Of a DNA stretch of 64,000 bases, positions 35,622 through 39,930 are shown in pieces (position 1 is the stretch's first letter; every line of letters starts with the position of its first letter). A model generated the notes under the pieces. That model was given only the letters and a program-made list of their open reading frames with translations, was not told the origin of the DNA and searched no databases. The position numbers and the translations under genes were made by a program. The stretch is from assembly GCF_988243305.1 (NCBI RefSeq), contig NZ_OZ547136.1; one strand, 5' to 3'.

Positions 35622-37721
35622 ATGAAAGCCACCGAAGCCCGATTACTCGATTTTCTAAAACGCTCTCAGCAATTCGTTATTCCCATTTATCAGCGTACTT
35701 ATTCATGGTCAGAGGAACAGTGCCGCCAGCTCTGGGACGATGTAATACGTGCCGGGCAGCGTGATGATATCCCGGCGCATTTTATCGGCTCGGTGGTGTA
35801 TATCGAACAGGGCCTATATCAGGTTTCGGGGATCTCTCCCTTACTGGTGATTGACGGTCAGCAACGCCTGACAACGGCGATGTTATTGCTGGAAGCGTTG
35901 TCCAGACACCTTGGCGATGACGAGGTGATGGATGGTTTCTCCGCCATGAAATTACGAAACTATTATCTGCTCAATCCGTATGAATCGGGCGAGCGTGGAT
36001 TTAAGTTACTGCTTACGCAAACGGACAGAGAGAGCCTGCTGGCATTGATTAGACAAAAACCGCTGGCAGAAAATTGCTCTCTACGCGTGAAAGAGAATTT
36101 TGAGTTTTTCCATGAGCAAATAGGCAAACTCCACGGCAATTTCACCGCGTTATGTCAGGGCCTTTCCAAACTGCTGATTGTGGATGTCGCCTTGAATCGC
36201 GGTCAGGATAATCCGCAACTAATCTTTGAAAGCATGAACTCAACAGGAAAAGCGCTGAGTCAGGCGGATCTAGTACGCAACTATGTTCTGATGGGGCTGG
36301 AGCCAGAACATCAAAGCCAACTGTACGACGATTACTGGCGGCCCATGGAGCTGGCGTTTGGTCAGAAGGGATACACTGACTATTTCGACAGTTTTATGCG
36401 TAATTACCTGACGGTAAAAACAGGTGAGATTCCGCGAATTGGTGATGTCTATGAAGCCTTTAAACGCTATGCGCGAAAACCTGGCGTAATAGATAGCGGG
36501 ATGGAGGCGCTGGTTGCGGATATTCGTACCTATGCGGATTATTTTTGTGCGATGGCGCTGGATAGCGAAAAAGACAAAATATTAAAGATGGCGTTTCAGG
36601 ATCTACGTGAGCTGAAAGTCGATGCCGCCTGGCCGTTCCTGTTGGTGCTTTATCACGACTATAAACAGGGAATTCTTTCTGCCGCGGATTTTTTAAGTGC
36701 CACGCGTTTAATTGAGTCGTATATCTTCCGGCGCGCAGTCTGTGCCATTCCCACTAACTCATTTACTAAAACCTTCGCCACGTTTTACAAAGTGCTGGAT
36801 AAAGAGCGTTATCTGGAGAGCATTGCGGCACATTTGCTGGAACTGCCTTCCTACCGTCGTTTCCCGGATGATGATGAATTTCAACGTGAACTGAAAACTC
36901 GCGACCTCTACAACTTCCGTAATCGCAGCTATTGGCTACGTAGATTTGAAAACCACGATCGTAAAGAACGGGCCTATGTTGACACTTATACGATTGAACA
37001 TATCATGCCGCAGAACCCTAATTTATCGGCGAAGTGGCGCGATGACCTTGGTCCGGAATGGAAGCGAATCCATAAAAAGTGGCTCCATACGTTGGGTAAT
37101 TTAACGTTAACTGGCTATAACTCAAGCTACAGCGACCGTCCATTTGCGAAGAAGCGAGATATAAAAGGTGGCTTTAAGGAAAGTCCATTACGCCTGAACA
37201 CGGGGTTAGGGCAATGTGAAATATGGGATCGTGCAGCGATACAAAAGAGAGCGGAACGTCTGTCCGAGCTGGCAATAGACGTCTGGGCGATCCCCAAACT
37301 TTCGGAAGACGTGTTGGCTCGTTATCGCACCGTCGTTGAACGAGGAACGGGATATGTCCTTGCTGATTTCCCGCAACTTGAAGAAGGTACGCACATCCGC
37401 GTACTTTTTGACAGCCTTTCTGATGCCGTTATGACGCTGGACGCTGGGGTTACGCGAGAAATATTGAAGCTCTATGTTGCCTTCAAAGCGGAGACGAATT
37501 TTGTTGATGTGGTGCCGCAAAAAAGTCGCTTACGTTTATCACTAAATATGCCATTCCATGAACTGGTTGACCCAAAATGTATGGCTAAAGATGTCACAGA
37601 TATAGGCCGTTGGGGCAATGGCGATGTTGAAATAGGTTTCAGCGATCTTTCTGAGCTTCCTTATGTGATGGGATTAATTCGTCAGGCATTTGAAAAGCAG
37701 ATGGATAACGCGATGGTTTAA
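35622..37721 (+). CDS. GmrSD/BrxU/SspE-like type IV restriction-type protein (DUF262 ParB-like NTPase + DUF1524 His-Me nuclease + extra C-terminal domain)
   Basis: - The ORF is 699 aa with a caggag Shine-Dalgarno.
- The DUF262 signatures are FVIPIYQRTYSWSEEQCRQLWDD and VIDGQQRLTT.
- The DUF1524 signatures are YTIEHIMPQNP and HTLGNLTLTGYNSSYSDRPF.
- About 150 aa of C-terminal extension is unassigned.
- The gene is divergent from hsdM. Confidence 0.85.
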   Translation: MKATEARLLDFLKRSQQFVIPIYQRTYSWSEEQCRQLWDDVIRAGQRDDIPAHFIGSVVYIEQGLYQVSGISPLLVIDGQQRLTTAMLLLEALSRHLGDDEVMDGFSAMKLRNYYLLNPYESGERGFKLLLTQTDRESLLALIRQKPLAENCSLRVKENFEFFHEQIGKLHGNFTALCQGLSKLLIVDVALNRGQDNPQLIFESMNSTGKALSQADLVRNYVLMGLEPEHQSQLYDDYWRPMELAFGQKGYTDYFDSFMRNYLTVKTGEIPRIGDVYEAFKRYARKPGVIDSGMEALVADIRTYADYFCAMALDSEKDKILKMAFQDLRELKVDAAWPFLLVLYHDYKQGILSAADFLSATRLIESYIFRRAVCAIPTNSFTKTFATFYKVLDKERYLESIAAHLLELPSYRRFPDDDEFQRELKTRDLYNFRNRSYWLRRFENHDRKERAYVDTYTIEHIMPQNPNLSAKWRDDLGPEWKRIHKKWLHTLGNLTLTGYNSSYSDRPFAKKRDIKGGFKESPLRLNTGLGQCEIWDRAAIQKRAERLSELAIDVWAIPKLSEDVLARYRTVVERGTGYVLADFPQLEEGTHIRVLFDSLSDAVMTLDAGVTREILKLYVAFKAETNFVDVVPQKSRLRLSLNMPFHELVDPKCMAKDVTDIGRWGNGDVEIGFSDLSELPYVMGLIRQAFEKQMDNAMV

Positions 37722-37764
37722 TATGGAATAATATCCTCTTTACCATGCAATCAAGGATCCTCTA

Positions 37765-38499
37765 ATGACAACCAAACTACTGGACCTGAGCTGGAATGCA
37801 AATGCCATCCCGGCGATGCAAATTGTCGGTACGCGCGCGGCCTTGTTTACCTTCAAAACGCATATGGCAGGGTTTGTCTGGGATGCCGCGCAACTGGAAA
37901 ATAACCCCTATACCTTTGTTGAAGTTAAAACGCTGCTCGATGGCGTCACCGTTGGCGGGCATAAGGTCAGTGATACTGAGCAGGTGTTGAACCTGGCAGA
38001 TAGCGCAAAAAAACTGATTGAACTTGTGCAATCCGGGCGTTTCGATCTTGATAAGAAAACGTTCACGTTGCTTAACGGCATTATTGCGCGTAATGAGGCG
38101 CTGGAGTGGGGCGTTTTTCGCGGCGAAGGTGATGAGTTACATTACAATGCGCGCGTTCACCTCGGCGAGTTGGGCACCCATTTCCCACCAGCCACAGAAG
38201 CAGGTGCACCTGAACTGAATCGAATATTCGCCGCAGGTGTGGCACAAATAAAAGAGATGCCACCGTTCGAAGGGGCGCTGGCAATGTTTTTATTTGGTGC
38301 TTATTTTCAGTTTTTCTTTGATGGCAACAAGCGTACCAGTCGCCATATGATGAACGGCTGGTTAATGCGCCACGGTTACAATCCCATTAGTGTACCCGCA
38401 GCTCGTGCGCTGGAGTTCAACAGCAAAATGGTGCGCTTTTATCACAGCAAAGATGCCAGTGAAATGATGGCATTTTTGGTGGATTGCTATCAGGTTTGA
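37765..38499 (+). CDS. Fic/Doc (Fido) superfamily protein with a degenerate, Doc-like core motif
   Basis: - The ORF is 244 aa with an aagga Shine-Dalgarno, 43 nt after the upstream GmrSD-like gene.
- A Fic-type N-terminal helix region is present (LENNPYTFVEVKTLLDGVTVGGHKVSDTEQVLNLADSAKKL).
- The core motif is QFFFDGNKRTSR (aa 182-193, nt 38308-38343), versus the canonical Fic HxFx(D/E)GNGRxxR and the Doc HxFx(D/N)(A/G)NKR. Confidence 0.75.
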   Translation: MTTKLLDLSWNANAIPAMQIVGTRAALFTFKTHMAGFVWDAAQLENNPYTFVEVKTLLDGVTVGGHKVSDTEQVLNLADSAKKLIELVQSGRFDLDKKTFTLLNGIIARNEALEWGVFRGEGDELHYNARVHLGELGTHFPPATEAGAPELNRIFAAGVAQIKEMPPFEGALAMFLFGAYFQFFFDGNKRTSRHMMNGWLMRHGYNPISVPAARALEFNSKMVRFYHSKDASEMMAFLVDCYQV

Positions 38500-38564
38500 A
38501 TAAGTGCTGGATGGTGTCCCAATGCTGCCATCCAGCCCCTTCATATCAACTTCCCTATCTTTTC

Positions 38565-38651
38565 CTAAAACGTGATGCTATTTCCAACATTCGAATCATC
38601 AGTGCACGAAAAGCAGATCGTAAAGAGAGGAATCGCTATGAGCATGGTTAA
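38565..38651 (+). pseudogene. brnT: 5'-truncated remnant of a BrnT (DUF497) toxin gene
   Basis: Read by hand in the frame of nt 38592. It encodes ...LKRDAISNIRIISARKADRKERNRYEHG and stops at TAA 38649-38651. IRIISARKA..KER..YE is the conserved BrnT C-terminus. Only about 30 of roughly 90 codons remain. The remnant overlaps the brnA-like start by 14 nt, as in intact brnTA operons. Confidence 0.65.
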
Positions 38652-38940
38652 ACATAAACGAGGGACCTCCTCTACACTCGATGTGCAGCATGAGGCCGAA
38701 TTGAAGGCGCTGGCGAATAAATTCGACGAAGAGATTGATTACAGCGATATCCCACCTTCCAGCGATGAGCAATGGTCTAACGCAGAACGCGGTAAGTTTT
38801 ATCGGCCATTGAAAACCCAGGCTTCGGTGCGTATTGATGCTGATGTGATGGAATGGCTGAAGCGACCTGGTAAAGGCTATCAAACTCGCCTGAACGCAAT
38901 TTTACGTGAAGCGATGCTGCGCGATCAGAACAAAAAATAA
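38638..38940 (+). CDS. brnA: BrnA-like antitoxin (DUF4415/RHH family), apparently orphaned
   Basis: 100 aa from MSMVKHKRG, with an agagagg Shine-Dalgarno; the track start at 38572 was rejected. The motif IDYSDIPPSSDEQWSNAERGKFYRPLKTQASVRIDADVMEWLKRPGKGYQTRLNAILREAM is typical of BrnA/DUF4415. Confidence 0.75.
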   Translation: MSMVKHKRGTSSTLDVQHEAELKALANKFDEEIDYSDIPPSSDEQWSNAERGKFYRPLKTQASVRIDADVMEWLKRPGKGYQTRLNAILREAMLRDQNKK

Positions 38941-38944
38941 TTCA

Positions 38945-38962
38945 GGCCGCCACATGGCGGCC
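38945..38962. terminator. Short GC hairpin between convergent brnA-like and yjiA
   Basis: The arm ggccgcc (38945-38951) pairs with ggcggcc (38956-38962) around the loop acat. Confidence 0.45.
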
Positions 38963-38973
38963 ATCATCCAAAA

Positions 38974-39930
38974 TTACTTCCTCAACCCCGCAAACGCCGC
39001 CCGAATCTCATCCTCCGGCAGCTGAATCCCGATAAACACCATCGTGCTATGCGGTTTTTCATCGCCCCACGGCCTGTCCCAGTCGGCGCTGTAGAGGCGC
39101 TGGACGCCCTGGAACAGCAGGCGGTTAGGTTCGCCGTCAATCCACAGCATCCCTTTGTAACGCAGCAGTTTATCTGCCGATTCCAGCAGCAGGTTTTCCA
39201 TCACGCGGGAAACTTCGCTGATATCTACCGGGTAATCCAGTTCCACCACAATCGACGAAATATCGTTTTGTTTATCCGCGATAAAGTGGAAACGCGGTTT
39301 GGTGCTGACGACGTTTTCTTCCAGCATAAAACCGTTGGTGTTGAACAACAGGCCCAGGTCGATGTCGCCGTGGGTGACGGTGTAGACCGGCGCGCGGGCG
39401 TTGATGCGTGCCAGACGTTCACGCAGTTTCTCTGCTTCGCCTGCGACGTCGGTTTTAGTCAGCAGAATACGGTCGGCGTAGCCAACCTGGGACTGGGCGA
39501 TGGTGAACTGGTTCATCTGCTCATCGGCATGTACCGCATCCACCAGCGCAATCACGCCGTCCAGCAGGTAGCGCTGGCATAAAATCTCATGGGAGAAAAA
39601 GGTCTGAATAATCGGGCCAGGATCGGCCATGCCGGTGCATTCAATGACCAGACGGTCGAACTGAATATTGCCCTTGTCGAGATTGTCCAGCAGGTCGAGT
39701 AGCGCGTCCTCCAGCTCGTTGGAGCGCGAACAGCAGATGCAGCCGTTGGTCAGCGTTTTGATCTGCGTGGCGCGGTCGCCAATCAGTTGATCATCAACGG
39801 AGACTTCGCCGAATTCGTTTTCAATCACGGCAATCTTGTAGCCGTGTTGTTCGTTAAGAATATGGCGCAGCAGGGTAGTTTTGCCCGCGCCTAAAAAACC
39901 GGTGAGTAGGGTCACTGCAATCGGGTTCAT
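38974..39930 (-). CDS. yjiA: COG0523 metal-binding GTPase YjiA
   Basis: The track ORF is 346 aa. The start MNPIAVTLLTGFLGAGKTTLL gives 318 aa. It has a P-loop and the GCICCS metal motif. The position is as in K-12. Confidence 0.92.
   Translation of the reverse strand: MNPIAVTLLTGFLGAGKTTLLRHILNEQHGYKIAVIENEFGEVSVDDQLIGDRATQIKTLTNGCICCSRSNELEDALLDLLDNLDKGNIQFDRLVIECTGMADPGPIIQTFFSHEILCQRYLLDGVIALVDAVHADEQMNQFTIAQSQVGYADRILLTKTDVAGEAEKLRERLARINARAPVYTVTHGDIDLGLLFNTNGFMLEENVVSTKPRFHFIADKQNDISSIVVELDYPVDISEVSRVMENLLLESADKLLRYKGMLWIDGEPNRLLFQGVQRLYSADWDRPWGDEKPHSTMVFIGIQLPEDEIRAAFAGLRK

Follow-up and report, generated by a model that had tools for sequence, protein, structure and literature searches.

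Next to yjiA in Escherichia coli, a restriction-gene cassette is followed by the last codons of a brnT toxin gene and an intact brnA antitoxin gene, which raises the questions of how the toxin was lost, whether the truncation marks the border of the defence island and whether the orphan antitoxin is kept for a function. The DNA analyzed, a stretch of 64 kb (64,000 nucleotides) referred to here as the window, was found to be the E. coli immigration control region (ICR), a hypervariable defence island that yjiA and yjiN/yjiS delimit (PMC12707154, PMC2481252), of which yjiA is an anchor gene (PMC12707154) and in which cassettes are exchanged between the two anchors (PMC12707154, PMC2481252). Variable defence genes lie between the same anchors in the window. 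The PGAP gene order of strain SK1144, one of the genomes with the deletion junction described below, is yjiS, a hypothetical gene, hsdR/S/M, GmrSD, Fic, brnA and yjiA-yjiX-btsT, in agreement with the ORF map of the window; hsdR/S/M is a type I restriction-modification system and GmrSD a type IV restriction enzyme. The GmrSD gene (35622–37721) is co-oriented with brnA and is followed by a plus-strand ORF of 244 aa (37765–38499), which closes the GmrSD-Fic cassette and borders the brnTA module on its left. This Fic-like gene matched the Pfam Fic family with E = 2.8e-4 and 22.1 bits, slightly under the 24-bit cut-off, and is named 'Fic family protein' by PGAP in strains C4 and SK1144. A stable plus-strand hairpin lies 3' of it, at approximately 38506–38536 (−19.1 kcal/mol, z = −4.2); it has no U-tract and the terminator scan made no call there, so that it is not a canonical intrinsic terminator. 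A second, GC-rich hairpin, located by the terminator scan at 38945–38962 between the convergent brnA and yjiA, reads as the terminator of the minus-strand yjiA and as part of the brnTA module; it is missing from genomes without brnA, whose homology with the window stops at the yjiA stop codon. The right-hand anchor yjiA itself, recognized as an ORF and through the PGAP annotation of homologous loci, occupies 38974–39930 on the minus strand. The homology with strain E2348/69, which has no brnTA, ends exactly at the yjiA stop codon, which places the conserved island border at 38973/38974 and makes brnTA itself part of the island cargo. An Rfam search of 38300–39100 with a permissive E-value returned no match.

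Similarity to the toxin is confined to a short stub. The intact E. coli BrnT of ST131 has 95 aa (brnT, 288 nt), and a tblastn search of the whole window with this protein recovered residues 76–95 at 38589–38648, with 100% identity (E = 3e-9), and no other BrnT similarity in the 64 kb. Codons 76–95 and the stop codon form a plus-strand pseudogene stub at 38589–38651, which corresponds without a mismatch to nt 226–288 of the ST131 gene, establishing its descent from brnT, and which is 95–100% identical to the remaining sampled genomes over its 63 nt. Its frame, closed by the TAA at 38649–38651, encodes ...IRIISARKADRKERNRYEHG*. The Pfam BrnT_toxin profile (PF04365/DUF497) matched the 62-aa frame at positions 58–77 of 77 with E = 0.0011 and 19.7 bits, below the gathering score of 34.5 bits because the stub is a fragment. 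Both searches agree with the first-pass annotation, which had described a brnT gene cut at its 5' end and had proposed the profile search as a check; its statement that the frame stays open back to 38463, overlapping the hairpin that follows the Fic-like gene, is likewise correct. The similarity was expected to begin near 38550 and about one third of the gene to survive, and these two estimates have to be revised, as DNA homology begins at 38589–38591 and 20 of the 95 codons (21%) are left. The N-terminal part (residues 1–75, MPMEFEWD...KHG...) is not found in the window, its coding DNA sitting in the deletion described below.

The open frame upstream of the stub could suggest that a functional BrnT is encoded through another frame or start, or that a chimeric ORF has become a new small toxin. 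Within this frame, which extends back to 38463 without a stop codon, a TTG start at 38484 gives a 55-aa ORF (38484–38651) that ends in the BrnT C-terminus. The 35 residues preceding that C-terminus are, however, the 3' end of the Fic-like gene, the hairpin and a non-coding flank, all read out of context; the residues LKRDAISN, for instance, are non-BrnT and arise by chance from an in-frame reading of the native non-coding flank upstream of brnT (38567–38590). Neither the tblastn match, limited to residues 76–95 anywhere in the window, nor the sub-threshold Pfam match, limited to the end of the profile, leaves room for an overlooked full-length BrnT, and the truncation stands. Among the loci inspected, PGAP annotates nothing but the 63-nt pseudogene, in GF43, as 'BrnT family toxin, incomplete, missing N-terminus', and a BrnT feature is listed under the junction match in strain N3. 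A toxin hidden at this position is accordingly given next to no credence. The 20-codon stub, without the entire N-terminal part of the RNase fold, would be incapable of toxin activity, and its combination with an orphan brnA is known in kind, the stub being already annotated by PGAP.

The antitoxin gene is intact, as had been stated from the sequence. The plus-strand ORF (38638–38940; ATG at 38638, TAA ending at 38940) encodes 100 aa that match Pfam BrnA_antitoxin (PF14384) over profile positions 1–68 of 68 with E = 1.8e-17 and 63.9 bits (cut-off 26.1), and a good Shine-Dalgarno sequence, AGGA, lies 6 nt 5' of the ATG. No NCBIfam model matched either BrnA or the brnT stub. The start of brnA overlaps the 3' end of the stub by 14 nt in the toxin-first order, and the 14-nt overlap of the ST131 operon confirms the earlier comparison with intact brnTA operons. 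Residues 14–57 of BrnA align to the antitoxin chain of PDB 7vd7 (E = 3.6e-16), which indicates by homology that the toxin-binding segment is present. The ORF is intact in nine of nine sampled genomes carrying the deletion. Position 29, which falls within the segment aligned to 7vd7, is F in the window and S in the 7vd7 antitoxin and in most E. coli alleles. This substitution, S29F, is a private non-synonymous change of deletion genomes (the window and strain C4) and hints at relaxed rather than maintained constraint on BrnA. The sampled brnA alleles at intact brnTA-yjiA loci differ from the window by 2.0–3.6% at the DNA level, and 13 brnA alleles contain 16 synonymous and 4 non-synonymous variable sites. 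Much of this polymorphism also occurs among the small number of sampled haplotypes with an intact brnT, as would be expected from recombination. Given this sharing and the recombined flanks, the 16/4 counts are no measure of selection after the deletion, and brnA dN/dS was rejected as a sign of it.

The event that removed the toxin could be reconstructed from genomes that retain the ancestral arrangement. In seven E. coli genomes (PapRG-06-5, A30, GF4-3, 33F4, 32F4, 33E and OkiPb01695), the same GmrSD-Fic cassette directly precedes an intact brnT-brnA-yjiA. The search that gave these seven genomes also gave 115 records at 80–90% identity. Alignment of the window with PapRG-06-5, A30 and ST131 showed one clean, contiguous gap of 290 bp, so that the comparison with intact brnTA-yjiA genomes proposed in the first-pass annotation maps the lesion exactly. 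The junction lies at 38589–38590, at a 2-bp microhomology (AT) common to both ends of the deletion. The deletion lies wholly within the brnTA module, having removed the 64 bp directly upstream of brnT, with a consensus TATAAT box and two TGTATATACA palindromes, and brnT codons 1–75. To the left of the breakpoint, 24 bp of the distal brnT upstream flank, AAACGTGATGCTATTTCCAACAT, are retained at 38567–38590 on the plus strand, as seen in the alignment. This flank is identical in ST131, PapRG-06-5 and A30 and conserved in E. albertii, Citrobacter and Klebsiella; in ST131 the left neighbour of brnTA is an IS1, yet the flank is present. The native flank kept left of the gap identifies the event as a deletion internal to the module, and its presence puts the junction between the Fic cassette and brnTA at approximately 38560–38567, about 25–30 bp left of the deletion breakpoint. 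In most E. coli genomes, similarity to the PapRG flank begins only at the counterpart of window position 38560.

These observations bear directly on the first interpretation of the locus, in which the arrival or replacement of the defence cassette cut brnT and the truncation point was the right-hand recombination scar of the island. The stub does lie only about 25–30 bp from the divergence point of the Fic-type and IS1-type left flanks, and the ICR is known for the exchange of cassettes between its anchors (PMC12707154, PMC2481252). The same cassette is nevertheless followed by an intact brnTA in the seven ancestral genomes, the 24 bp of native upstream flank survive left of the breakpoint, the missing DNA is a single 290-bp block internal to brnTA, and the border common to brnTA-less genomes is the yjiA stop codon. 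A recombination scar is therefore a very improbable explanation, and the claim was abandoned.

The deletion junction was found in exactly 108 of 5426 complete E. coli genomes, counted as those in which a 56-nt junction-spanning query is fully covered. A 100-nt junction query gave 115 genomes, the same 108 plus the seven ancestral ones, and overcounts because in the ancestral genomes its two halves were joined over the intervening 290 bp. Sequence divergence around the deletion reaches about 6% on the Fic side and is 2–4% in brnA, which implies either an old deletion or its transfer between backgrounds through recombination. Diverged flanks together with an intact brnA in all nine sampled deletion genomes could reflect long retention of brnA.

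Loss of the toxin from this operon is not restricted to the 290-bp deletion. A brnA adjoining yjiA is present in 2111 of the 5426 complete genomes (approximately 39%), with a full-length brnT in 1781 and a partial brnT in 330 of these; after subtraction of the 108, about 220 carry other truncations. Sampled cases of the latter showed an independent internal deletion that keeps nt 1–103 of brnT and leaves brnA intact (for example, CS18F). The brnTA-yjiA synteny also occurs in E. albertii, several Citrobacter, Pseudescherichia, Pluralibacter and some Enterobacter. In a survey of one genome per species, a full-length brnT match was obtained at 80 species loci, most of which had the same overlap geometry, with that match ending 11 nt into brnA. 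At about 16 of 79 species loci, brnA occurs without an intact brnT, mostly through different internal brnT deletions, a frequency biased upward since the species sample was ascertained through BrnA; nine of the 16 toxin-less loci keep an operator-like palindrome within 330 nt upstream of brnA. Toxin-less brnA genes in E. coli and in other species show that toxin-first decay recurs. The standard expectation for toxin-antitoxin (TA) loci is that the toxin can go first and the antitoxin cannot, and the recurrent loss of brnT with brnA kept fits this expectation. No paper on brnTA at yjiA in E. coli was found in a literature search.

The 64 bp lost upstream of brnT probably contained the regulatory region of the operon. 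All 35 species loci examined have the TGTATATACA palindrome no more than 110 nt upstream of brnT (one copy, two mismatches allowed); it was seen as two tandem copies in most of them, and is kept even where the upstream region is otherwise unrelated, as in Enterobacter, Xenorhabdus and Erwinia. Judging from this conservation, the palindromes are probable operators for the ribbon-helix-helix domain of BrnA, overlapping the promoter. Binding through this C-terminal domain, and autoregulation, would then depend on a candidate operator that is conserved elsewhere and deleted here. No copy of TGTATATACA, with up to two mismatches, was found in the 64-kb window. A sigma-70 scan of 37600–39100 detected no promoter-like site; the same scan also misses the plus-strand brnTA promoter at an intact locus (L010) and so cannot place the promoter, for which the conserved TATAAT and the palindromes were used instead. 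With promoter and operator assigned by conservation, brnA would be left without either of its native control elements. With the toxin truncated and the 64 bp upstream lost, the locus does not have the two intact partners and the autoregulated promoter of a functional type II TA module. Read-through from the co-oriented GmrSD-Fic genes, across the hairpin without a U-tract, would be the one evident way of expressing brnA, and could yield substantial BrnA.

This route of expression leaves room for a selected function, in which the orphan BrnA, expressed through read-through, is maintained either for anti-addiction or immunity against BrnT brought in by incoming DNA or for the regulation of other genes through its ribbon-helix-helix domain. 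The intact ORF and good Shine-Dalgarno sequence in nine of nine sampled deletion genomes on diverged backgrounds, the orientation of brnA in line with the upstream genes across a hairpin lacking a U-tract, and the recurrence of orphan brnA in many species are in favour of such a role, and the idea of anti-addiction by orphan antitoxins has been proposed in the literature, although it is called undemonstrated for them (PMC7354431). The targets, however, are scarce. In module-carrying E. coli genomes, brnT-like DNA occupies one place per genome, and no second brnT was found at the DNA level, the exception being a single genome in which a further place lies on a record labelled as plasmid. A cognate BrnT (≥90% identical) was present on four of 72,556 plasmids; another Escherichia plasmid match, among the matches listed, is about 45% identical to BrnT. 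The sole BrnT match in the phage collection was a Salmonella genome contig, no genuine phage record. A cognate toxin circulating on the mobile elements of the host is thus hardly in evidence, and an anti-addiction role is unsupported, with few possible targets and nothing positive in its favour. Regulation of neighbouring genes is equally unsupported, the window offering no operator-like palindrome on which BrnA could act and the native promoter region having been deleted; the private S29F also hints at relaxed constraint. Maintenance of BrnA by selection is consequently considered unlikely. Of the possibilities first offered for the orphan, that of a simple relic stands as the most likely, and the anti-addiction and neighbour-gene regulator roles gained no positive evidence: BrnA is most likely without a selected function, a relic awaiting loss.

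A related and more specific proposal is that brnTA at the yjiA border served as an addiction module stabilising the ICR cassette, and that a toxin-less brnA transcribed by GmrSD-Fic read-through is kept as immunity. Were this true, cells bearing brnA would accept or lose ICR cassettes with an intact brnTA by recombination without being poisoned, and the repeated disappearance of brnT, with brnA kept, from E. coli and at least 12 other enterobacterial species would be selected and not neutral decay. This proposal is regarded as a long shot.

The relic interpretation is also in keeping with what is known of related systems. The type II TA system BrnT/BrnA, with its prototype in Brucella abortus (PDB 3u97; PF04365, PF14384), is likewise toxin-first, with the antitoxin start overlapping the 3' end of the toxin gene, and the intact E. 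coli BrnT matches 3u97 (E = 1.6e-4). Unlike the prototype, the window keeps 20 of 95 toxin codons and has lost the upstream promoter/operator region, and it is no longer a TA system. The toxin of PDB 7vd7, whose chains are labelled 'toxin' and 'antitoxin', is very similar to the intact E. coli BrnT (E = 4.1e-52), whereas the window has no toxin partner; a literature search found 7vd7 mentioned in no relevant paper. The intact brnTA-yjiA loci (ST131 and Nissle 1917, as well as E. albertii, Citrobacter and others) share the locus and the brnA-hairpin-yjiA arrangement with the window, and differ from it in their full 288-nt brnT and in the upstream TATAAT and palindromes. Most orphan antitoxins are described in reviews as degraded TA loci (PMC7354431; survey TASmania, PMC6504116), and a high percentage of the orphan antitoxins surveyed in Klebsiella were considered likely to have degraded from intact systems (PMC7354431). 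The degraded loci of these surveys (PMC6504116, PMC7354431) similarly have an antitoxin beside a recognisable toxin remnant, and nothing essential differs here, except that in the window the exact deletion and the ancestral state can be reconstructed. The chromosomal ccdA of Erwinia chrysanthemi is, like BrnA, a chromosomal antitoxin able in principle to neutralise an incoming cognate toxin; in its case, plasmids commonly carry the cognate toxin and neutralisation has been demonstrated (cited in PMC7354431). In contrast to the ccdA case, plasmids and phages almost entirely lack a cognate BrnT, and the expression of the orphan brnA is doubtful.

Taken together, the locus is, in all likelihood, a decaying type II TA module in which brnTA lost its toxin by the 290-bp deletion and brnA is a relic. 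The starting point was a brnT-brnA operon directly adjoining yjiA, as now seen in approximately 39% of E. coli and in several other Enterobacteriaceae, which in one lineage lay beside a restriction cassette, GmrSD-Fic. The 64 bp upstream and brnT codons 1–75 were then lost in one 290-bp deletion at a 2-bp microhomology. If the palindromes are BrnA operators, the same event would have removed the native promoter and the autoregulation of the operon. From then on, the promoter-less brnA would be transcribed solely by read-through from GmrSD-Fic, and its survival beside a presumably non-toxic stub may be explained by toxin-first loss being the only viable order of decay.

The consequences for annotation are that the stub should be recorded as a brnT pseudogene and brnA as an orphan antitoxin without its own promoter, and that the truncation point is unfit as an island border. 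Beyond annotation the finding is of little importance. It nevertheless provides a clean, datable example of a chromosomal TA module decaying by loss of the toxin first, for which seven genomes preserve the ancestral state, and identifies brnTA as a long-standing neighbour of yjiA in the Enterobacteriaceae, whose conserved double palindrome is a likely BrnA operator and may be useful for studies of BrnTA regulation.

The palindrome TGTATATACA was found upstream of brnT in all 35 species loci (one genome per species; one copy within 110 nt of brnT, two mismatches allowed), mostly as two tandem copies with a T-run between them. It lies approximately 25–45 nt 5' of the brnT ATG in the homologous loci L001, L010 (intact brnTA), L011 and L014–L072. 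Given its conservation, this palindrome is likely the BrnA operator, and no description of it was found in the literature searched. The region that holds it is missing from the window, where the deletion point falls between 38590 and 38591. A second conserved element upstream of brnT, AAAYGTGAWGYTWTTTCCAAC (38567–38588), outlived the deletion and is common to the brnTA loci of Escherichia, Citrobacter, Klebsiella and Raoultella. It does not match a −35 box normally spaced from the TATAAT.

An intact brnA was also found beside many independent brnT deletions, both in E. coli (L003:3889–4307 of strain CS18F, plus about 220 other genomes) and in the species loci L020, L033, L038, L039, L040, L046, L047, L049 and L057. 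The end points of these deletions vary, with the E. coli type, as in CS18F, retaining brnT nt 1–103. Roughly half of the species loci without an intact brnT retain the upstream palindromes, and their orphan brnA genes are therefore probably still expressed and autoregulated, unlike that of the window (38638–38940).

The GmrSD protein of the window (35622–37721) comprises two GmrSD domains and a C-terminal DUF5655 (E = 5.9e-11), and matches the PADLOC model Orf5 (PDLC02693) with an E-value of 1.5e-214. Its homolog is split or annotated as a pseudogene in several genomes that share the brnT deletion of the window (L005, L006 and L013; strains GF43, Z142-6 and A37, respectively); therefore, decay in this cassette extends beyond brnT. 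The Fic-like gene (37765–38499) follows GmrSD in nearly all inspected loci of the cassette; in strain A30, IS1 rather than GmrSD lies upstream of it. Its predicted product scored slightly under the Pfam Fic cut-off (22.1 vs. 24 bits) and carries QFFFDGNKRTSR (encoded at about 38320–38355) in place of the Fic/Doc motif HxFx(D/E)GN(G/K)R, so that a glutamine occupies the position of the catalytic histidine.

A 64-bp stretch matching the 3' terminus of the Fic-like gene at 81% identity was detected in strain E2348/69 (L004:4001–4063) and in 49 further genomes. There it occupies an unannotated part of another variant of the immigration control region (ICR), with a type I R-subunit pseudogene on one side and a gene for a 3'-5' exonuclease on the other, and is a further cassette remnant within the ICR patchwork. 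When window positions 37890–39690 were compared with L002 and L005–L013, one identical 290-bp deletion junction was found on differing Fic-side flanks (up to 44 differences in 700 nt) and beside differing brnA alleles (up to 11 in 303 nt). This combination points to extensive recombination in the DNA flanking the junction and agrees with the description of the ICR as a 'bastion of polymorphism'.
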